This document shows positions 7,788 to 58,167 of a stretch of DNA of 64,000 nt, piece after piece. This DNA is from Terriglobia bacterium. Its GTDB lineage: Bacteria > Acidobacteriota > Terriglobia > 20CM-2-55-15. The stretch lies in NCBI GenBank assembly GCA_965218585.1, contig CBDCLE010000004.1:96001-160000 (forward strand). Direction: 5' to 3'. The number at the start of each line of letters is the position of its first letter. Position 1 is the stretch's first letter. Position numbers and translations under genes: made by a program. The notes under the pieces were generated by a model, which searched no databases, was not told where the DNA came from, and worked only from the letters and a program-made list of their open reading frames with translations.

Positions 7788-7844
7788 GGCCCTCGGGAGG
7801 CAGGTAGTGCGGGATTAGCGTGTGCTGCCCCTGTGTAGTTAGGT

Positions 7845-8117
7845 TTAGGGTTGCGTGGCAGACTCAACAACGGGGCCTACGACGAACCCGTCGTGTTCAA
7901 TGGTCCAGCCAAGATTCCGAAGGACGCTAAACATCTTATTCGGCCCAATTCTTTCCGTGCTCAGAATCTTTCGTAGATGGTCAGGATTAAGCCCCGCCTC
8001 TTCAGCGAATGTGCCTTGATTTCCCCGTCCGCGTACCTCTGATTCTTCTTGCAACCGCGCAATGAAGACAGCGGTCAGAGCATCCGCCAGAGATAGGGAT
8101 GGGGCATGGCTAGACAT
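7845..8117 (-). CDS. Small putative HTH (XRE-like) DNA-binding protein, transposon passenger
   Basis: NQGTFAEEAGLNPDHLRKIL helix-turn-helix-like pattern. Palindrome TTTGTGTAA-N4-TTACACAAA at 8117-8138 abuts its start. Confidence 0.5.
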   Translation of the reverse strand: MSSHAPSLSLADALTAVFIARLQEESEVRGRGNQGTFAEEAGLNPDHLRKILSTERIGPNKMFSVLRNLGWTIEHDGFVVGPVVESATQP

Positions 8118-8281
8118 TTGTGTAAGCTTTTACACAAACTATGAATTGGAGTGTGGGGCCTCAAATCTCCACATACCATATATTCAATAGTTATTGTGGC
8201 GACCATATAGCATTGGACCAGATATGTCTATTTGTGTATTACTATACACAGATAGAGAGCAGTGCGACTGTTACTCTCTTC

Positions 8282-8310
8282 TTGACGGCATGACGACCAA
8301 TGATTACAAT
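8282..8310 (+). promoter_or_regulatory. Near-consensus sigma70 promoter for the PyrF homolog
   Basis: TTGACG-17 nt-TACAAT. Confidence 0.6.
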
Positions 8311-8402
8311 GAGCGATTCCACCGTGCGGGGCCCCCTCTCGTCCCTGTACAATGGTTATTGGGGCAGTTTTTCCTTTCTTCTGCCTTATCTGGGGTGATT
8401 CA

Positions 8403-9173
8403 ATGGCAACAGTCGGCAATGAAGCCCGCCTGAGGCAGGCAGATCCAACTCTGCCCGCCCGCGAGCGGTTGATCGTTGCGCTCGATTTTAACAACCGCGA
8501 CGATGCGCTGGGGCTTGTTGATAAGCTTCAAGGCGAGGTGGAAACCTATAAAGTAGGCTACGAACTCTTTATCTCTGAAGGGCCGCAGATCATTGTGAGT
8601 CTCGTACAGCACCAGAAGAAAGTGTTTCTCGATCTCAAGATGGATGATATTGGTGTCACCATGTCGCGGGCTGTGACTGCAATCAAGACTCTCGGGGTTT
8701 CTTTTCTGACGCTGAAGGGTAATGGAGCGACTGCAAGAGCGGCACGTGAAGGGCGTGGGGCTGGCCCGCCACCGCTTTTCTTGCAGGTCACGTACTTGTC
8801 GAGTCAAGATGAAGCGGACCTGCACGATGAGTATGGTGCGAATATCCCGCTGCAGCAGTTCATCAGGATTCGGGCAGAAAAGATTCTTGAGGCGGGCTGC
8901 GATGGCGTAATCGCTTCAGGTGCAAGCGTTGGGGATCTTCGAGGTTATTTGGATGGCCGCGTTGCTCGGGTGAAGACGCCAACAATCGTTGTTCCTGGTA
9001 TCAGGCCGGAGTGGGCAGAGCCGGACGACCATAAGAGATTCTTGACGCCAACGGATGCCATTCATACCGGTGCCGACTACTTAGTTGTGGGACGGCCGAT
9101 CAGGCATGCATCCGATCCAGCTGATGCAGCCCATCGAATCATCGACGAAATACATAGCGCATCTAACGTATAA
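8403..9173 (+). CDS. pyrF: Orotidine-5'-phosphate decarboxylase homolog (divergent), transposon passenger
   Basis: RLIVALD, YKVG, FLDLKMDDIG (DxKxxD), PGIRP, DYLVVGRPI. ATG 8403 preferred over the longer ORF-track start. Confidence 0.9.
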   Translation: MATVGNEARLRQADPTLPARERLIVALDFNNRDDALGLVDKLQGEVETYKVGYELFISEGPQIIVSLVQHQKKVFLDLKMDDIGVTMSRAVTAIKTLGVSFLTLKGNGATARAAREGRGAGPPPLFLQVTYLSSQDEADLHDEYGANIPLQQFIRIRAEKILEAGCDGVIASGASVGDLRGYLDGRVARVKTPTIVVPGIRPEWAEPDDHKRFLTPTDAIHTGADYLVVGRPIRHASDPADAAHRIIDEIHSASNV

Positions 9174-9180
9174 AGTTTGA

Positions 9181-9270
9181 CGGAGGGGACGGGATTCGAA
9201 CCCGCGAACTGTGGTATCAGCACAGCGCCCGATCCTAAGTCGGGTCGTTTCACCTGACAACAGCCCCTCC
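9181..9270 (-). tRNA. Atypical class II tRNA, anticodon UAG (Leu), Ser-like acceptor/discriminator, no encoded CCA
   Basis: GGAGGGG/CCCCTCC acceptor, CCCGA-CTTAGGA-TCGGG anticodon arm, CTGTG/CACAG variable arm, GCGGG-TTCGAAT-CCCGT T arm, discriminator G, C at position 8. Confidence 0.8.
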
Positions 9271-9331
9271 GTCAATTCCCCACCCTACCCACTCCGCAGT
9301 CACATCCGGTCCATAACTCTCAACTAATAAC

Positions 9332-9360
9332 TTGCATACGGGCGTATCATATGATACATT
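9332..9360 (+). promoter_or_regulatory. Promoter with overlapping palindromic operator for the RHH gene
   Basis: TTGCAT-17 nt-TACATT; perfect palindrome GTATCATATGATAC at 9344-9357; ATG 6 nt after the -10. Confidence 0.6.
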
Positions 9361-9366
9361 ACATAA

Positions 9367-9531
9367 ATGACGACAAAGACTATTAACCTTCGGGACATGC
9401 CAGAAGATCTAGTGAGGAAAGCCAAGGCACACGCGGCACTAGAGGGAATCAGCCTGAAGGCTCTCGTCATTCAGGCCCTAGACCAGGTTGTCCGAGAGGA
9501 AAAGACAGGAAAGAAGATTAAAGAGAAATAG
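9367..9531 (+). CDS. 54-aa ribbon-helix-helix (Arc/CopG-like) regulator, not in the ORF track
   Basis: Manual translation MTTKTINLRDMPEDLVRKAKAHAALEGISLKALVIQALDQVVREE fits the RHH pattern. Confidence 0.75.
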   Translation: MTTKTINLRDMPEDLVRKAKAHAALEGISLKALVIQALDQVVREEKTGKKIKEK

Positions 9532-9957
9532 ATCGGCCCTGCCCGGTGCGACTAACACCAGACAGGGCCTAACTAACTCACGCGATAGAGCCGCATGAGC
9601 CAGCCATCAAACTCATTGTGAACCTGTCCGCGTGGAAAGGCAAGGTTCACAATGACCTGCATCCACTGCCAGCACGACCGAGTTAGAAAGTCCGGCACCT
9701 ACGGTAAGAAACGCATCCAGCGTTACCGTTGCACGTTCTGCGATAAGACCTTCTCAGAAGCCCAAGAAAAGCCTCTCGGAAAGCTCCGTATATCAGTCGA
9801 GAAAGCCGTCCAGATCGTCAATTGCCTCGTCGAAGGTTGCGGTATCCGTGCCACTTCGAGATTGTGTGACGTAGACGCAAAGACGGTTCTTGCCGTACTT
9901 GAGTTGGCCGGAGAACGATGCCAACGGCTCATGGACCGAAAGTTGTACGGCATCAAT

Positions 9958-10995
9958 CGCTTTGACAACGTAAAAAGAGCCCACCCCCGGGTTAATGGTT
10001 TGTAAGTAAATCCGCCGTCGGGGTTGCGGGAAGTGTGGAAGCCGAAAGCTTCCAAGCCGCGGTGGTAACGCGCCGGCTTTGCAGCGGGTTTCCACGGTGG
10101 CGACACTTTCCACAGCCGCTCGCTCGCGTGTGTTTCACGCGGAACCTTGGGCGGACCGGGGTTTCTTCTTCCGTTTGCCCGCGGCACCGAGACTCTCGGT
10201 GAAGCGGATACTTTCCCAATCGAACTGATGAATCGCACAGTGATGGGTCAATCGGTCCAGCAGGGCCGCGGTCAGGGCGGCATCGCCGAACACGCTGGTC
10301 CACTGCGCAAACGGCAGGTTCGACGTCACGATGAGGGAACCCTTTTCGTACCGGTCCGAGAAGACCTGAAACAGCAACTGGGCACCCTCGGCCGAGAACG
10401 GGATATAGCCGACCTCGTCGACGATGAGCAGCTCGAAGCGGGACAACTTCGCCAGTTGCCGCTTCAACTGTCGCTCCTCACGGGACTCGATCAGCGTATT
10501 GACCCGCCCCGCGGCCGTGGTGAACCCGACGCGGTAGCCCCTCCGGCAGGCTTCCACGCCCAGCACCGTCGCGGCGTGGGTCTTGCCGGTGCCGTGCTTG
10601 CCCAACAGCACGACGTTCTCGCACCGGGTGATGGTGTCGCACTCGGCCGGCTGCTCCCGATCGGCCCGCAGCCAGCCCTCCACGATCCCGGCCACCGGGT
10701 CCATCACCGGACAGGCCGGCTCCTTCTCCCGCCGATACTTCGGCTCCTGGCCGGCCAATACTTTCCGGACCGTCCGTCTCGTGTGCCCGGTCTCCCGGGC
10801 GATCTGTCGAATGCTTTTCTTGTAAACTCGATGTGCGGTCCTGACCATCTCGTACTGATCCATCCCTAACAACTCCTTATCCTCCCTCCGCCATGCCGGT
10901 TCATCCAGGCACTCGCCGGGGGAGGCTATCAGGGTGGGTCCTTTTTCCTCGATCAGAACCCCGTTTGGTGGGTCCTTTTTACGTTATCGAAATCA
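9958..10995 (-). mobile_element. Internally deleted IS21-family element (in-frame istA 5'-istB 3' fusion, ORF 10135-10872)
   Basis: Imperfect IRs containing AACGTAAAAAG; TSD ATCAAT (9952-9957, 10996-11001). IstA HTH N-terminus fused to IstB motifs GKHGTGKT, LLIVDEVG and LLDRL. Confidence 0.88.
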
Positions 10996-11082
10996 ATCAA
11001 TGCACAGCAGATCCAGTGCGACGAAATTTGGACTTTTGTTCAGAAGAAAGAAAGGCGCATTAAACCTTGGGAGAATGGCAAT

Positions 11083-12447
11083 GAGGTCGTTCCAATCGGT
11101 GTGTAAAAAGAGAAGGCGGTGTACGCTTTCGGTGAATTCGAAACCGTAAGCAATCCCGGCAGCAATCGGGAGAAAGGTACACCACCCATGAAGAAGAAGA
11201 ACATACCGGCATCAGTGGCGTCAACGAACGCGTATGAAGGTTTGGAGGACTGGGCGCGATCCCGGGTCCAAGTCTGGCTACAGGAGCTGCTCGAGGACGA
11301 AGTCACTCAATTTCTGGGTCGGGAAAAGTCGGAGCGGAGTCCGAATCGACGAGGATACCGGAACGGTCACGGGAAACCGCGACGCTTCGCAATGATGAAC
11401 GGTACGATGGAGGTTCGACGACCTCGGGTTCGAAACACCGCCGAGCGGTTCGAGAGTCAGATCCTGCCGTATTTTCGACGGAAATCGAAACAGCTGGGCG
11501 AGCTACTTCCCGATCTCTACCTCCACGGTCTGGCCACAGGGGACTTCGAGCAGGCCATGCGCGGACTGCTTGGCGCTGGCGCTCCGTTGTCGCGAGCATC
11601 GATCCAACGACTGAAATCGACCTGGCAGTTGGAGTATGACGAGTGGGTCCAGCAGGACCTGTCCGGCCTCGAGGTCGTGTACCAGTGGGCAGACGGCTTG
11701 TACGTGAAAGCGGGGATCGCGAAAGAGCGAGCGGCATTGCTGGTGATCATCGGAGCCTTGTCAGACGGGCGCAAAGTGCTGTTGGCCTGTGAGAGCGGGC
11801 AGCGGGAAAGCAAGGAGTCCTGGAGCCGCATTCTGCGCAATCTCCAGAGACGGGGCCTGAAGCTGGGACGGCTGACTGTCGCGGACGGTCACCTGGGCAT
11901 CTGGTCCGCGCTGGCCGAGCAACAGCCCCAGGGCCAGGAACAACGCTGCTGGAACCACAAGTCGATCAACGTGGTCGATCATCTGCCGAAGACCGAGCAG
12001 CCCGCGGCCAGACAGCTGCTTCATGGGATGGCCTTCGCGAACTCCCGCGCGGCCTGCGAACGAAAGCGGGATCAGTTCGTCCGCCGATATGAGAAGAACT
12101 ATCCCAAAGCGGGTGAGACGCTGTTGCGGGACTGGGACCGGATGATTACTTTCTATGAGTTCCCGAAACAACACTGGGTGCATCTGAGAACAACCAACAT
12201 CGTCGAATCGCCCTTCGACATGGTTCGCCTCCGCACCAACGCCGCTCGCCGATTCAAGCGTGTCGAGAATGCAACGGCAATGATCTGGAAGCTACTACGT
12301 GTCGCTGAGAAGGCTTGGCGACACTTAAAAGGATCCGAACTCTTACAAGAGGTCTATGATGGTCAGCAATTCGCTGACGGCATCAGAGTCGTGATGAAAT
12401 CGAAGGCCGCCGCCTGATGACTTTTACACACCTTTTGTAATAACCTC
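11083..12447 (+). mobile_element. IS256-family element, transposase about 11188-12417
   Basis: IRs GAGGT...GGTGTGTAAAA; TSD ATGGCAAT; motifs YRNGH, WADGLY, QRCWNHK, LRTTNIVES. Confidence 0.92.
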
Positions 12448-12674
12448 ATGGCAATGAGATCGGAAGCCAGTACGTTTTCGTGGCGTTTGACCGTGACTCG
12501 AAACTCGCTATCAACCACACGATAGGAAAGCGTAGCCCAGCTACAACCCGTCAATTCGTGGGTGACCTGAAACGCCGTGTCAGTGGGAGGGTGCAAATCA
12601 GCACAGACGGATTTGGAGCTTATCTTGGCGCAATCGAGGATACGTTCGGGGCCAACGTCGATTACGCTCAACTA

Positions 12675-13488
12675 GAGCGTGTTAACACTAATGTAGTGCC
12701 TCGACGATGAGTGCGAAGTGAAGGAAAGCGAGGAACATGACGTCGAGTTTATCGAAACGGGAGAAGATACGCCGAAAATCCTTGAGTCGGCGGAAGAGCC
12801 TCTCGACTTCGTTCCTGCGGCGGTAGAGCACGCGGTCGTATTCCCACGGCTCCAGGCGGTTGCGCTTGGGCGGCACGACGGGAATCCACCCAAAATCCAG
12901 AGCCAATTGGCGGGTCTGGTCGTCCTGGTAGGCACGGTCCATCAGCAGCGGCAGTGGCGCGGGCAACGGCCCCAGGCCGGCGAGCAGATCGCGGCCCTGC
13001 GGGGCGTCGTGCGCTTGGCCGGGCGAGAGCGCAAACGTTATCGCCGTTCGAGCATTCGCGGCAACCAGATGAATCTTGGTGGTCCATCCACCGCGGGATT
13101 TGCCGATCGCTTGCGGACCGTTTTTTTTAACGCTCCCGTGCCGTCGGGATGCACCTTCACAATGGTCGAGTCCATCGAAACGGCTTCCACCCGGATGCGC
13201 ACCAGTTGCTCGCGCTGGAGTTTTTCGAAGACGGCGTCGAGCACCCCGTTCTTGGACCAGCGGTTCATCCGGGTGTAGATGGTGTGCCAGTTGCCAAAGC
13301 GCTTGGGCAGACCGCGCCACTTGCAGCCCTGCTCAGCCACATACAAAATGGCGTTCAAGACCGTCAGGTTCGAAAGACTGACGTTGCCCCGCCGACGCGG
13401 CAGTTCCGGCTCGATGCGACAATACTGCTCCTGTGTGATCTCCATGCCTGATTATAAAACATTCATGCTCATTAGTGTTAACACACCC
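12675..13488 (-). mobile_element. IS5-family (IS427-like) element; two ORFs (13038-13445; about 13130 to 12688) joined by a probable programmed frameshift at an A8 run (13121-13128)
   Basis: IRs containing GTGTTAACACTAATG; TA duplication; motifs GCKWRGLP, SRGGWTTKIH, YRRRNEVERLF. Confidence 0.9.
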
Positions 13489-13833
13489 TAGTGAAGGTCT
13501 ACCAGAATGAACCCGCAAGGCGAGGACGTTATGCCCCATCGAAGTTCGTCCGGGCGATCTCAACCACCATATCGGGCAATCCCGATCCCAAGCTCATCTG
13601 TACGTCCCACGTCGAACGATGCAATCTCACTATGCGCACCTTCATGCGGCGATTGACGCGCCTATGCCTCGGATTCTCGAAGAAGTTGGACAATCTGAAA
13701 GCCGCAGTCGCATTGCATTTCGCGTGGTACAACTTCTGCCGGGTTCACAGGAGCCTTCGGGTGACTCCTTGTATGGAGGCTGGGTTGGAGGATCATATCT
13801 GGACGATTGAGGAGCTAATCGCATGAGATACTA

Positions 13834-15072
13834 CTACTATGTTACAAACGGTCTATTTTATGTTAGCATCCGGTCATGAGCGCCAAATCGAAGGCGCCAG
13901 GCACTCAGGAAAAACGTTTTGCGGCCTATTTGGAACGCCTGGCGTCGGCCGCAGGACACGCCGATCGTCATGAACCGTTGAAGTCGTACTGCACCGGGTT
14001 GTTGCTGCCGATCAAACGTAAGAGTGTGGAGCCGATGGCTGCACGATTGGCTCCGGATAATGTACGCCGAATGCACCAGTCGCTACATCATCTGGTCGCG
14101 GATGCGCCCTGGGACGATGCGGCTCTGTTGGCAGAAGTTCGACAGTACGCGCTGGGGGCGATGGAAGCCAACGGTCCGATTGAAGCCTGGATTGTCGACG
14201 ACACCGGATTCGTGAAAAAGGGGACCCACTCGGTGGGTGTGGCCCGGCAATACTGTGGACAGGTCGGCAAACCTGAGAACTGCCGGGTGGCGGTGAGCCT
14301 GTCGGTGGCGACAGCGAAATCCAGCTTGCCGGTGGCATGGCGACTCTACCTCCCCGAGACCTGGGCGAAGGATCCGGAACGTCGAAGCAAAGCCGCTATT
14401 CCCGAAGACGTTCGATTTCAAACTAAACCTCAAATTGCTTTGGAACAAATCCGGCAGGCCGTCGATGACGGCATTGCTCCGGCACCGGTTCTGGGCGATA
14501 CGGCCTACGGCAACAACTACAAGTTCCGGCACGGCATCACCGAACTCGGACTTAGCTACGTCCTAGGGGTGCAAGGCACCACGACCGTGTGGAAACCGGG
14601 CCAGGGTCCCTTGCCGCCGAAATCCTTGACCGGCCGCGGACGGACACCGACCCGCATGCAGCGCAACAAGAAACATCAACCGGTTTCGGTCAAGCAACTG
14701 GCCCTCTCGTTGTCTCCCCAGCGTTGGAAGAACGTCTCCTGGCGCGAAGGCACCTCCGAGACCCTGCGTTCCCGTTTCGCCGCAGTTCGCATTCGTCCCG
14801 CTCATCTGGATCACGAGCGCCACTCGCCGCATCCGAAAGAGTGGTTGTTGGTCGCCGAGCGGAGCTGTTTTTCCCCCTCTGCATTTGTCGAGCATGTTGG
14901 ACTATCCGTCCCCAAACTCCCCAAACACTTCAAACCCCGCAGAACCCCGGATCCGGCCCGAACGACATAACCCCTGCTCGATTGCCACGCTTCGCATTCG
15001 CATCGCCCGCTTCCTGATTCAGCAGCTTCCTCATTGTCCGTTCTGTGGACCGCTTCGTTTATAACACAGTAG
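13834..15072 (+). mobile_element. IS701-family element copy 1; transposase 13876-14970 with a 3' internal deletion
   Basis: IRs CTACT(A/G)TGTTA(C/T)AAACG; TSD TACTA; motifs VDDTGFVKKG and ARQYCG. Lacks the RWIIERDYQELK segment present in copy 2. Confidence 0.9.
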
Positions 15073-15119
15073 TACTACAAGGGCTACAGGAAAAAAATAT
15101 CAGAACAAAAGCACACGCT

Positions 15120-16752
15120 GATATGGATTGACCCTGTCAAGCTTCCGTTACGTTTCTCGAATGCGCCTCCTTCAATGTGCTGGATTCAGGGCGCGGCCGG
15201 CATGATTCGCGACGGTGGATCACTCTGATATTCGTGGGTTGGCTACCACCTGACATCACTTCGTCGCGGAGCTGCCTCGGTCTAAGGACGTGGGTCGGTC
15301 TGGCTGAGCCAAGCCTCTCATAGCGTGCACGAGGATTCTCCTCACCGGCCTGCCACGCCCTGAATCCAACACATTACGTTTTTTGGGTCCAGCCTTGCTC
15401 CGGAAGCGCATGATGGCATTGCGCCCGGGGAGGCGTCGGAGGAGTTTTCCACACCTTGTCCATGGCACCGCGTGCTTCGAATACACGGCGGAGCAGTGGC
15501 AAGGTGTGGAGAACTCCGGCCCATCTCTCAGCTCCGCGCCCGCGTTGCATGGGCTCGGCCCATCACCTCGCAAGCAATCGCCCAGATGAACCCCACCAGC
15601 TCGCGGGCCACCGCGGTGGTGACCACGCACTTCGCCTTGCCCGCGCTATACAGATGCCGGTACCGCGCACACAGCCGCTTCTGGGCTGCCCAGGCGATGG
15701 CCTGCACTGCTGGCGGCGCCGCACTCGCCTTGCATCTCAAGTGCCTGGTTTTGCGCGCAGGGAACCGGTAGCTCCAGGCCGATTCAACCAGCACGCGGCG
15801 CACGTGTCCATTGCCTGTTTTCGTGATGGCTCCTTGGCGCCGCCGCGGCCCCGAGGAGTGCTCGCTCGGCACCAGCCCCAGAAAGCTCATCAGCTCGCGC
15901 GGCGAATCAAAACGCGTCAGGTCCCCGAGTTCGGCCAGCACCGTCATGGCCGTGACCACATCCACCCCGCGCAACGCGATCAGCGCCTCGACCATCGGAC
16001 GCAGCGACCACCGCTCCAACACCTCGCGCATCTGCCCTTCCAGGCCCGCCACGCGGCGGCGCGCCTCCATCACCGTATCGACGTATTCCTGAAACACCAC
16101 CTGCTGTACCGGATGCTCGAACCGCTGCTCCTCCAGCCACCGAAAGTGCCGTTGCGTCCACCGGCTCTTGCCTTCCCGATACACTCGATCATGACGCAGC
16201 AGAAACACCCCCAGTCGCTGCCGAGCCTTGGCCTCGATCGCCTTCATGTCCTCGCGCGCCCGCGTCAGGTCGCGCATCGCCTCCTGCTCCTCGTCGGGCA
16301 CCCACACCGCCGTCAGCTCCCCCGACCGATGCAGCCGCGCCAGCTTCACCGCGTCGCGCCGATCCGTCTTCACTCGCTCCCCCGCGCGCCGCGGGATCAG
16401 GCTCGGCGCGACCACCTCGCAATAGTGGCCGGTGTCGATGATCTCTCGATACACCCCATACCCGCACGGTCCCGCCTCGTAGCAGAAGCTCAACACCTCT
16501 GCGTGCGGACTCAGGCTGCGAATGAGTCGCAGCAGCGATTTGCGTTGATTCTTGATCTCGCCCCGGTACACCGGCGCCTCACGTCCGGGCAGCGCTACCG
16601 CCACCGCGATCGTGTCCTTGTGAACGTCCAGTCCAACGTATGCACTACACTTGTTCATGACCTGCCCTCCTCGTTGTGGCTCTGTGTCGAAGGTTCCTCG
16701 CCCCGCAACATAACCCACGCGTACGAGGCCAGGGCAGGTCAATCCATGGTGT
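15120..16752 (-). mobile_element. IS110-family (IS1111 group) element inserted in the IRR of the IS1 transposon; transposase about 15528-16658/16742
   Basis: Motifs VGLDVHK, CYEAGP, KTDRRDA, GLVPSEHSSG. Sub-terminal IRs ATGGATTGACC; duplicated CT core at both junctions; about 400-nt non-coding region downstream of the transposase. Confidence 0.92.
15174..15375 (-). ncRNA. Candidate bridge/seek RNA of the IS1111-group element
   Basis: Closing stem (15174-15197 with 15352-15375) encloses four short segments that match target and donor halves in the expected order. Confidence 0.55.
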
Positions 16753-16901
16753 CTAATCCCGCACTACCGGGAGGCAAGAGTTGGCCGTCTTTCGGGGCCT
16801 CTCCGCGCATTTTCCTGGTAGGCGGTGCTGGCACGCCCGGCACCGTTCTTATGAAAGGACTTTCGTCGTTTGGTGGGACCCCTTATCTCCGCAGAAAGGA
16901 G

Positions 16902-17930
16902 TCACACAACGTGGATGCAGGCTTCGCTGTGCGGAAGAGCGCGGCCGATTTCAGCGACATCGATGCCCTCCCCAACAAGTGCATCGATCAGGCTGGAAGA
17001 ATCTGCTTCGTTTATGAAAATAAGCAAGCCACCGGAGGTCTGGGGATCGAATAGAACGCTCTGGTGGTCTTCCGGTATCTGGGGACTCCAGGTGACGTGG
17101 GGAGAAAAGAATTCGCGATTGCTGTTCAATCCGCCAGCGCGGTGCCCCTTGGCGCTGTAATCGAGAGCACCATCAAAGATCGGCAGGCGGGTGTGGTCGA
17201 CTTCGATGGTCAGATTGCTGGCGCGCGCCACTTCAACGGCATGGCCTGTCAAACCAAAACCACTGATATCGGTCATCGTGCGGACGTCGAACTGAGACAC
17301 GATTTCGGCTGCCCTCTTATTGGTTTCAATCATCGAACGGAGCGCGGCATCAACATGCGCTGCCTCCGCCTCTTCTCTCTTCGAGGCTGTCGCGATGAGT
17401 CCCGTCCCCAGGCGTTTGGTCAGCAACACGCTGTCGCCGGCGAGCGCTCCACTGTTATCTCGAATCCGTGTGGGATCCACAGTCCCCGTCACTGCATAGC
17501 CAAACTTTATCTCTTCGTCCTTAACCGAATGCCCTCCCAGCAGCGCCACACCGCACTCGTTGAGCTTGTCCAAACCCCCGTCAATGATGTCCCTCAGCAG
17601 GCTGGGATCCGCCTTGCCTTCCGGAAAACCTACGACCGAAAGCGCCGTCAGGGGCGTAGCGCCCATCGCGTATATGTCGCTCAACGCGTTTGCTGCGGCG
17701 ATCTGCCCGAAGGAGAAAGCGTCATCAACGATGGGTGCAAAGAAATCGACGGTTTGGACCAGGGCGATATCGTCGGTGAGGCGATACACTCCGGCGTCAT
17801 CGGCATGATCGAAGCCGACGAGGATTTCAGGAATTTGCTGGGCCTTGAGGCCTTTGAGCGCGCGGTCCAAGTCCCTTGGACTTAACTTACCTGCTCAGCC
17901 GGCACATTTCGCAAAACTAGTTAGCTTCAT
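16902..17930 (-). CDS. selD: Selenide, water dikinase, Sec-containing (UGA at 17895-17897)
   Basis: True start ATG 17930 after RBS GAGGGAG gives MKLTSFAKCAG-U-AGKLSP. Motifs DDAGVY, QTVDFF, DIYAMG, GGHS, DPQTSGGLL. Hairpin AAGTCC-AAG-GGACTT lies about 11 nt after the UGA. Confidence 0.93.
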
Positions 17931-18327
17931 CCACTCCCTCGAACGCTGCCTGACTTGGGCCAGACTCTTCGCCATCCGGGTGATCTTCACTCATACGACT
18001 GCGGCCGTTGAGTGAACCGCCGTCTTCGATGACCAAGGCTGGCGTGCGGATATCGGCGGTGACGCGCCCCGTAGATCGGATCTCGATCCTCCGGGCGGCT
18101 TCGATGTTTCCAGAAACACGCCCATGGATTTCGACCTCACCGGCATGAATGTCGGCGTGAACGTCGGCGTGCTCACCAACGGTTAAAACATCATCGGTTG
18201 CAATGGAGCCGTGGAAATCGCCATCGATTCTGAGCGTTCCAGAAAACCGGAGTTCCCCGGTTACGGCAGTGCCGTGATCCAGAAAACCGGTGATCTCTTC
18301 AGAGGAAACCTTTCCCCGACGTCGCAT
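17917..18327 (-). CDS. Bactofilin (polymer-forming cytoskeletal protein)
   Basis: GELRFSGTLRIDG...G-V-G repeats; usual position after parB. Confidence 0.9.
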   Translation of the reverse strand: MRRRGKVSSEEITGFLDHGTAVTGELRFSGTLRIDGDFHGSIATDDVLTVGEHADVHADIHAGEVEIHGRVSGNIEAARRIEIRSTGRVTADIRTPALVIEDGGSLNGRSRMSEDHPDGEESGPSQAAFEGVDEAN

Positions 18328-18345
18328 GGAACCTCCCGGGCGCGG

Positions 18346-19203
18346 TCAGAAGCGCGCCTGAAGCAATCCATTGTAAAGCCTGTCGAGTTCATCTTTCGAA
18401 TGAAAGTGAATCTCGATCTTGCCCTTGTTGCCCGACTGTCGAATCGTCACCTTTGTCGCCAGAGCGCGCTCCAGCCCGCGGATAGCTGCCCGTACGTTCG
18501 GATCGATATCTGTACCCGTCTTTCCCTTCTCACGTTTCGGTCTGCCGGGACGGTTGACCAGGGCCTCGGCTTGCCGAACCGAATAGTTGCCACGGATCAT
18601 TTCCTGGGCCGCGGCCAGAATCTCTTCCGCATCCGTCAGTGAAAGCAGCGCTTTGGCGTGCCCGACCGTGAGTTTTCCGTCCTGCAGCCACAATTGCACT
18701 TCCCCGGGGAGCTTCAACAGTCGAAGCATGTTGGCTATCGTGGCGCGGCTCTTGCCCACACGCTCAGCTAACTCGTCCTGCTTCAGCCCGAACTCCGACA
18801 AGAGTCGTTGATAGGCCTGGGCTTCGTCGATCGGGTTGAGATCTTCCCGTTGAACGTTTTCGACCAGTGCCAATTCCAACGCCTGGTGCTGGTGGGTTTC
18901 ACGGACCAGAGCCGGCACCCGCGCCAGCCCCGCCTTCTGGGCTGCCCGCCATCGGCGCTCTCCGGCAACGATCTGAAAGACGCCGTCCTGGAGCGATCGC
19001 ACCACGATGGGCTGGACCACACCGTGGATCCGAATCGACGCAGCGAGATCATCTAAACCACTGACATTAAATGACTTACGTGGCTGATCAGCGTTCGGAA
19101 TAATCCTGTCGATATCTATTTCACGTAAGCGGTCCGACTCAAGATCGGGTGTGCCGAGCAGTGCGCTCAGCCCCCGGCCTAAAGCTTTTCTCTGCGCGGG
19201 CAT
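18346..19203 (-). CDS. parB: Chromosome partitioning protein ParB
   Basis: ALGRGLSALL, QPRK, AGERRWRA, ENVQREDLNP. Confidence 0.97.
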   Translation of the reverse strand: MPAQRKALGRGLSALLGTPDLESDRLREIDIDRIIPNADQPRKSFNVSGLDDLAASIRIHGVVQPIVVRSLQDGVFQIVAGERRWRAAQKAGLARVPALVRETHQHQALELALVENVQREDLNPIDEAQAYQRLLSEFGLKQDELAERVGKSRATIANMLRLLKLPGEVQLWLQDGKLTVGHAKALLSLTDAEEILAAAQEMIRGNYSVRQAEALVNRPGRPKREKGKTGTDIDPNVRAAIRGLERALATKVTIRQSGNKGKIEIHFHSKDELDRLYNGLLQARF

Positions 19204-57730: not shown

Positions 57731-58167
57731 GTCAAGTGTTGGGTCAAGCGTCAGTAGGGTAGTTCAGTTATCTTGGTCAGCGGTTACGCGGCTGGGGCGA
57801 CGCGTCCGGCGCTGGATCGCGCCGGACAATCTCAAGATGCGGTCGGCTGTGTCTCGCTGCATGGAACTAATTAGGCGCACAACGTAACTTTCCGGATCAG
57901 CTAAACCGCGATACTGATTCTGATCCTTGCCGCAGCGATAATCCCGGTCGTTGCAGTTCGCATTTTGTTGAGAAAATAGGGTATTGGGCAGATCGGTTCG
58001 ATTTTGCACGATAAGCGTAGCGTTTCCGACGAGCGTTGAGGTGCCGATAGAGCGTCGAGAGTCGCCCCGGCTAAGCCGGGGCTTACCAATTGAGTTGTCC
58101 ATTTGCTGCGTCAAGCGCCCTTAGCGCCGCACCGTGCAATGTTTGCCAATGGAGGAGAGACCCCTGT

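Follow-up and report, generated by a model that had tools for sequence, protein, structure and literature searches.

An intact IS1111-group insertion sequence from a Terriglobia bacterium with a predicted bridge RNA that spells its landing site

Two insertion sequences of the IS1111 family, IS4321 and IS5075, reportedly target the terminal repeats of Tn21-family transposons, a habit that Partridge and Hall are said to have described in 2003. RNA guidance, in the account given by PMC11187229, has been demonstrated for four IS1111 members and one IS110 member, and PMC11208160 describes the same for IS621; bridge RNAs have been predicted in 93% of IS1111 entries (PMC11187229; PMC11208160). Members of the IS1111 group are described as having a GL-P----S(T)G motif in the C-terminal domain of the recombinase, subterminal inverted repeats of 11-13 bp with terminal extensions of 7 bp and 3 bp, and a long non-coding region downstream of the recombinase gene; read in the orientation of the transposase, their RNA matches first the top strand and then the bottom strand (PMC11187229). 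In many members the donor-binding bases lie in a multi-loop, and for IS621 a natural tolerance of mismatches and wobbles, as well as discontinuous donor pairing, has been documented (PMC11208160).

The element described here lies in the window, that is, the whole 64,000-nucleotide stretch of a Terriglobia bacterium contig that was analyzed; coordinates refer to the window unless another contig is named. As judged from its sequence, it is an intact IS1111-type mobile element whose own predicted bridge RNA spells the landing site. Likened by description only (PMC11187229; PMC11208160), it resembles ISEc11, ISKpn4, ISPa11, and ISPst6 in having a DEDD recombinase, the GL-P----SG motif, 11-bp subterminal repeats, and a 3' non-coding region, but it differs from them in its target, its guides, and its host lineage.

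The element and its ends

The complete insertion sequence occupies 15120-16754 on the minus strand (1635 bp, with one copy of the CT core counted), and homology among the genomic copies ends at 15120 and 16754. An earlier note on this DNA, from which all quoted strings were found in place, had given the range as 15110-16768; that range also takes in a split IS1-type repeat, whereas the inserted element itself is only 15120-16754. The sole long frame of the element (15528-16658, minus strand) encodes a recombinase, or transposase, of 376 a.a. with a DEDD (RuvC-like) N-terminal domain and a PF02371 C-terminal domain. It matches Pfam DEDD_Tnp_IS110 (1.5e-15) and Transposase_20 (2.1e-20), both above their curated cutoffs, and scores 262.6 bits against the NCBIfam model NF033542, "IS110 family RNA-guided transposase" (cutoff 140). 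The translated recombinase contains GLVPSEHSSG, which is the GL-P----S(T)G motif. Its subterminal inverted repeats, each of 11 bp, are ATGGATTGACC (15123-15133), with 3 bp (GAT) outside, and GGTCAATCCAT (16737-16747), with 7 bp (GGTGT plus CT) outside, in agreement with the IS1111 rule for repeats and extensions (PMC11187229). The non-coding sequence amounts to 408 nt on the 3' side of the gene (15120-15527) and 96 nt on the 5' side (16659-16754). The domains, the motif, and the subterminal repeats all agree with the assignment to the IS1111 group that had been made from the letters alone.

At the left junction, the sequence reads ...AGCACACG-CT and then GATATGG, with the CT at 15118-15119; at the right junction, it reads ATGGTGT-CT and then AATCCCG, with the CT at 16753-16754. 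CT is the only sequence common to the junctions, and there is no target duplication beyond this core.

An outward-facing TTGACA, resembling a -35 box, is present at 15135-15140 (minus strand), at the right end of the element in the orientation of the transposase, where the earlier note had expected it to contribute to a promoter across the joined ends. The box is a feature of the family: of the 43 distinct junctions in the family, 29 have it, followed by a CATNAT-like box after 17-18 bp, and 9 more have TTGACG. In the window element, a -10-like CACCAT (3/6 matches) would follow after an 18-bp spacer across the joined ends. The design of the junction promoter is conserved, and by analogy it may function as a promoter in this element as well.

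The predicted bridge RNA and its guides

A bridge RNA (seekRNA) of about 204 nt is predicted at 15173-15376 on the minus strand from an inverted repeat, the z-score of its fold, and covariation. The region is bounded by a 28-nt inverted repeat, and a 22-bp closing stem (15376-15355 with 15194-15173) encloses the target loop and the donor region. The single-sequence fold of this region has z = -4.07. When the window RNA was aligned with those of 29 relatives (n = 30), the consensus structure comprised 48 pairs, 29 of which show compensatory changes; 93.2% of cells are paired in the consensus, in contrast to 36-41% when the partners are slid, and none of 500 shuffles reached the observed values. 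A search of 13000-19000 against Rfam 15, at E-values up to 1, gave zero matches.

Four guide segments are predicted within this RNA, all on the minus strand. The left target guide, UGCACGCUA (15321-15329), occupies the 5' strand of the target loop (15330-15320); it includes the shorter match CACGCUA at 15327-15321, and the longer match begins at 15329. This guide repeats the left side of the target followed by CT and A, and would pair with the bottom strand. The right target guide, CCUUAG (15282-15287), is on the 3' side of the same target loop (15289-15279), where UUAG at 15285-15282 lengthens to CCUUAG from 15287 and complements CT-AAGG. The left donor guide, UGAUGUC (15252-15258), matches the element end TGGTGTC at 6 of 7 positions; an A faces a C, and the second base of the core has no match. 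Taken as GAUGUC, the guide matches at 5 of 6, and the single mismatch is found in the window and in most relatives. The right donor guide, AUAUCAG (15225-15231), complements CT plus GATAT. The two donor segments flank a small hairpin inside the second stem. In the computed consensus, which is backed by covariation, all four segments that the earlier note had proposed as guides are predicted to lie in loops, and are therefore not buried in stems.

Together, the four segments are found in order in 0 of 200,000 mononucleotide shuffles of the 204-nt RNA region, while alone CACGCTA appears in 2,833 and ATATCAG in 1,308 of 200,000. The 8-mer CACGCTAA is not rare either, with 1 occurrence in the window vs. 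1.09 expected. A bare 8-mer is common by chance, so the argument draws its weight from the junctions, from the other copies, and from the relatives.

The arrangement of the predicted RNA is similar to that of known members of the IS1111 group, in that its segments match both strands of the target, overlap at the core, and have the top-strand match first. As in many IS1111 members, the donor-matching bases are in a branched region and not in a simple loop. Like IS621, it has two loops, a left guide that would pair with the bottom strand, a right guide that would pair with the top strand, and the CT core within the pairings. It departs from IS621 in that the RNA is encoded 3' and not 5' of the gene, the orientation of the gene relative to the CT core is reversed, the subterminal repeats are long, and a shorter stretch (2-3 nt plus the core) serves as the effective right target guide.

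Among public sequencing runs (4 of 22, as assembled contigs only), one RNA-library contig of 153 nt falls in the gene and none falls on the RNA region; within the assembled contigs of the same 4 runs, none joins the right end of the element to its left end; these absences weigh neither for nor against the RNA or the circle. Most contigs of three metagenome runs have a T for the A at window position 15255, which changes the left donor guide from GAUGUC to GAAGUC, the form of most relatives.

Insertion sites in the host genome and in relatives

The genome contains 5 complete copies of the element, at 99.7-100% identity, and 4 partial copies. Of these, 8 include the RNA region, without any difference in its sequence, and the same 8 have a readable left junction. 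Written in the plus-strand orientation of the window, the site of the window copy is CACACG-CT-AATCCC. The copy on contig C16 is intergenic, between ordinary genes, at TTGCACG-CT-AAATAG; the second copy on C4 is at CCTACG-CT-AAGGCA, followed by a resolvase fragment; the C19 copy is at CGTACG-CT-AAGAGC, with a Tn3-family transposase directly after the unit; and the C10 copy is at TTGCACG-CT-AAGGCC, where both target guides are matched in full. Three left-only junctions read ...TACG-CT, and one right-only junction reads CT-AAGGCT. The flanks agree on YACG-CT-AA, and the full match to the guides is TGCACG-CT-AAGG; the right flanks (n = 6) comprise three with CTAAGG, one with CTAAGA, one with CTAAAT, and the window with CTAATC.

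In six of the 8 cases, the left flank is a 38-bp unit beginning with GGGG (or GGGT) and ending with ACGCTAAG. On C19, a frame of 968 codons beside the unit scores 997.7 bits against the NCBIfam model "Tn3 family transposase" (cutoff 500), while a Tn3 gene is absent beside the repeat at the full copy on C10 and at two junctions on C9 (3 of the 6 Tn3-type sites). The 8 junctions are thus divided between Tn3-type repeats (6), an intergenic site (1), and an IS1 repeat, which is the site of the window copy only. Judged by these comparisons of sequence, the guides are best matched, among natural targets, by the conserved inner end of the 38-bp terminal repeats of the Tn3 family. Since the RNAs are identical and 6/8 junctions are in Tn3-type repeats, the main prey would therefore be Tn3-family ends. 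The earlier note had tied its reading to other insertions matching CACGCTAA; the other sites do match, and the reading survives on this point.

Across the genome, there are 34 CACGCTAA sites and 35 ACGCTAAG sites, few of which are occupied, so either 8 bp are insufficient or transposition is rare. An empty Tn3-type repeat at 57977-58014 of the window, 86% like that of C10, reads GCACG-AT-AAG and so has both flanks without the CT core, although this is a single case. When the flanks of the 5 full copies were joined, an uninterrupted copy was absent elsewhere in the genome. The recombinase is absent from 4/4 genomes of the same genus, and is found in 1 of 24 genomes of the same family, at 50% identity. 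On contig C9 (158686-160417; L111), two partial copies abut in head-to-head orientation at a single coordinate. They are enclosed by two identical Tn3-type repeats that face inward, with Tn3 genes absent in between; the arrangement reflects either a miniature Tn3-derived element that has been rearranged or an artefact of assembly.

The window copy is located in a different kind of repeat. Elements of the IS1 family end in inverted repeats of about 23 bp and duplicate 8-9 bp of their target. The host unit in the window (7803-16768, about 9 kb) has a perfect pair of 24-bp inverted repeats: the left one, GGTAGTGCGGGATTAGCGTGTGCT (7803-7826, plus strand), is intact and empty, and the right one is split into its first 10 bp, AGCACACGCT (15110-15119, plus strand), and its last 14 bp, AATCCCGCACTACC (16755-16768, plus strand). 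The unit is flanked by an 8-bp direct repeat, GGGAGGCA (7795-7802 and 16769-16776). Contig C7 encodes an intact paralogue of 315 aa, to which transposase fragments at 9652-9954, 12459-12716, and 13488-13823 of the window can be aligned. For this paralogue, the best NCBIfam model is transpos_IS1 (87.6 bits, below the cutoff of 100), and the score against Pfam DDE_Tnp_IS1 is 30.1 bits (cutoff 24.1). The N-terminal transposase piece in the window matches transpos_IS1 at 1.6e-12, also below cutoff. Insertions of the IS256, IS5, IS701, and IS21 types have broken up the unit. With transpos_IS1 below cutoff and DDE_Tnp_IS1 above it, the "IS1 transposon" of the earlier note is therefore probably a distant IS1-family unit, now broken up; its 24-bp repeats and 8-bp duplication fit the family.

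An upstream DDE_5/IS701 element was also considered as the host. It has its ends at 13829 and 15077, with the insertion 41 bp outside; as it stops at 15077, it is not the host of the insertion. This IS701-family element (13829-15077) has about 30 genomic copies, and the window copy is without about 214 bp present in the others and has a broken reading frame. The IS1-family unit also carries four nested insertion sequences and, between its left repeat and the transposase start at 9652, an OMP-decarboxylase-like gene (8352-9173), which is either a passenger or the result of further rearrangement.

Pairing of the guides with the window site is incomplete. On the left, the guide can pair over CACG-CT-A, and the two positions beyond could be accommodated by G:T and U:G wobbles; on the right, the guide can pair with CT-AA only, which leaves positions -3 and -4 unpaired. 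The suspicion of a near-cognate site voiced in the earlier note is borne out by this pattern, in which the site pairs at most guide positions and misses two on the right. The weakness of the right-target match is nevertheless partly a trait of the family, as only 2-3 right bases covary in relatives. By its sequence, the window site is a look-alike in an IS1-family end that is near-cognate to the guides.

It has been suggested, in the same note, that the element parasitizes IS1 ends, in which case the IS1-family terminal repeat would be the true prey and the guides would have evolved to attack it. It is true that the window copy interrupts an IS1-type repeat of 24 bp precisely, and that the left guide matches this repeat over 7 bases. 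However, only 1/8 junctions is in an IS1-type repeat, as against the 6/8 in Tn3-type repeats, and the right-hand sequence called for by the guides, AAGG, is missing from the IS1 repeat. Additionally, the identical target in the left repeat (7803-7826) is unoccupied, and further copies of this repeat are absent from the genome. This explanation is improbable, and the claim about IS1 ends is not upheld; Tn3-family ends are the better candidate for the prey.

Relatives of the element were sought by scanning one genome per species, which identified 80 loci with 58-97% protein identity in many phyla. The same ends, AG-ACAT(C/G/A)ATG...ATTGACC and GGTCAAT.CATA(T/C)C-AG, are found at 54 loci, and 48 elements with full flanks and both anchors yielded 47 unique guide/flank pairs. 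Within these 47 pairs, positions +1 to +5 of the left guide are paired in 79, 85, 81, 77, and 62%, respectively, compared with 22-31% in non-cognate pairings. Positions -1, -2, and -3 of the right guide are paired in 98, 94, and 55%, compared with 81, 29, and 27% in non-cognate pairings, and guide positions farther out are at background. The relatives share kinship, so these counts overstate independence. When guide variants were counted once, 19/33 had a site matching at least 7/8 positions, compared with 1.9% of non-cognate pairings; the other 14/33 variants were below 7/8 in this fixed-column test, some of them because their core is displaced by one column. Relatives with an ATACC end, and no others, have AUACCAG as their right donor guide, and the left donor guide of relatives is GAAGUC or GAUGUC against GATGTC ends. 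The covariation envisaged in the earlier note was therefore seen, in that the guide loops track the flanks position by position. These data suggest that guidance is provided by the core together with about 5-6 left-hand and 2-3 right-hand positions.

The tracking of flanks by guide loops bears on a second explanation, according to which the protein or the subterminal repeats choose the site, RNA complementarity is incidental, and the structured region serves in regulation or end recognition. An imperfect donor-left match would be in keeping with this, and a highly conserved scaffold would also suit a protein-binding site. Yet the variable loop columns follow the flanks while the recombinase ends stay constant, and RNA guidance has been shown experimentally in IS1111/IS110 members and IS621, as described in PMC11187229 and PMC11208160. 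A choice of site by the protein is highly improbable in comparison with a choice by the RNA.

Several relatives deserve separate mention. In Halomonas sp. HK25, L062 and L063 have inserted into a further copy of their own element, within its bridge-RNA gene; the insertion point is the DNA encoding the right target guide, which is a form of self-targeting. A common target, ...CCGACAGGCTC-CT-AG, is found for L040, L058, L060, L067-L069, L077, L096, and others from different phyla, and suggests another widespread repeat or mobile-element end as prey. A relative from a Paracoccaceae MAG (L039, L041, L044, L047, and L051), at 69% identity, has guides for TCACG-CT-AAG, and one of its sites, L041, is a 38-bp GGGG...ACGCTAAG unit. 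A second lineage may therefore share the Tn3-end target; a long Tn3 transposase frame is absent within 1.4 kb in the flanks of L041 and L047.

Proposed mechanism and place in the family

A spread of the copies as relics, through recombination or duplication in the assembly and not through recent targeted transposition, is very unlikely. Insertion sequences are indeed nested in this region, and truncation or rearrangement has affected four copies, among them the two head-to-head partials on C9 and halves adjoining IS256-type genes on C10 and C19. The five complete copies, however, are 99.7-100% identical, with open frames, different unique flanks, and a common CT core. Our preferred reading, to which we assign a probability of roughly 85%, is that an active or recently active IS1111-group element picks its insertion site by means of its own bridge RNA (seekRNA).

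If it behaves like IS621 and ISEc11, the element would excise as a circle, the junction of which would read ...CCATATC-AG-ACACCATGG... The joined ends would create a promoter (TTGACA, an 18-bp spacer, and CACCAT) that could drive the recombinase and the RNA downstream of it. This RNA would then bridge the circle junction and the target TGCACG-CT-AAGG. Its target loop would present UGCACG-CU-A on the 5' side and CCUU-AG on the 3' side, pairing with the bottom strand on the left of the target and with the top strand on the right, while GAUGUC and AUAUC-AG in the second region would correspond to the joined ends. Strand exchange would take place at CT. The window copy would have landed in the right repeat of the IS1-family unit, which happens to read CACACG-CT-AATC.

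The closest parallel in choice of target is provided by IS4321 and IS5075. Like these, the present element is an IS1111-family element inside the 38-bp terminal repeat of Tn3-family transposons, in one orientation. Unlike them, its recombinase is only 24.6-25.6% identical to theirs, over 61% of the length. IS5075 in plasmid NC_025185.1 is located between ...GGGGTCGCCTCAGAAAACGG and AAATAAAGCACGCTAAG, at about the middle of the repeat, whereas the present element cuts ACG-CT-AAG, 3 bp from the inner end of the repeat. With about 25% identity and another position in the repeat, the lineage is separate from IS5075 and uses another spot. From these comparisons, it looks like an independent solution to the target class of IS4321/IS5075. 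In a literature search, the scope of which did not extend to ISfinder or the supplements of the 2024 papers, no IS1111 element cutting the inner end of a Tn3-family repeat was found.

A broader interpretation can be offered tentatively, as a possibility that we consider less probable than its negation. A widespread IS1111 clade, present in many phyla, would keep a near-invariant RNA scaffold and donor ends and swap only about 10 guide bases, and at least one of its lineages would have guides directed at ACGCTAAG, the 8 bp at the inner end of the Tn3-family repeat that are most conserved. This would constitute a second, independent case of transposon-end parasitism beside IS4321/IS5075, in which wobble and a short right guide allow spill-over into unrelated elements, such as an IS1-family end.

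The mechanism has been known since 2024, so the element opens no new question, and it is a good natural example of a known mechanism and not of a new one. It does provide a clean natural data set for the less-studied IS1111 type, with one RNA and eight sites of graded match, to which the near-identical site that has no CT core and is empty adds a contrast. The family alignment reveals which positions actually guide. Moreover, Tn3-family ends appear to be targeted at a second position, by a lineage that is distant from IS4321/IS5075.
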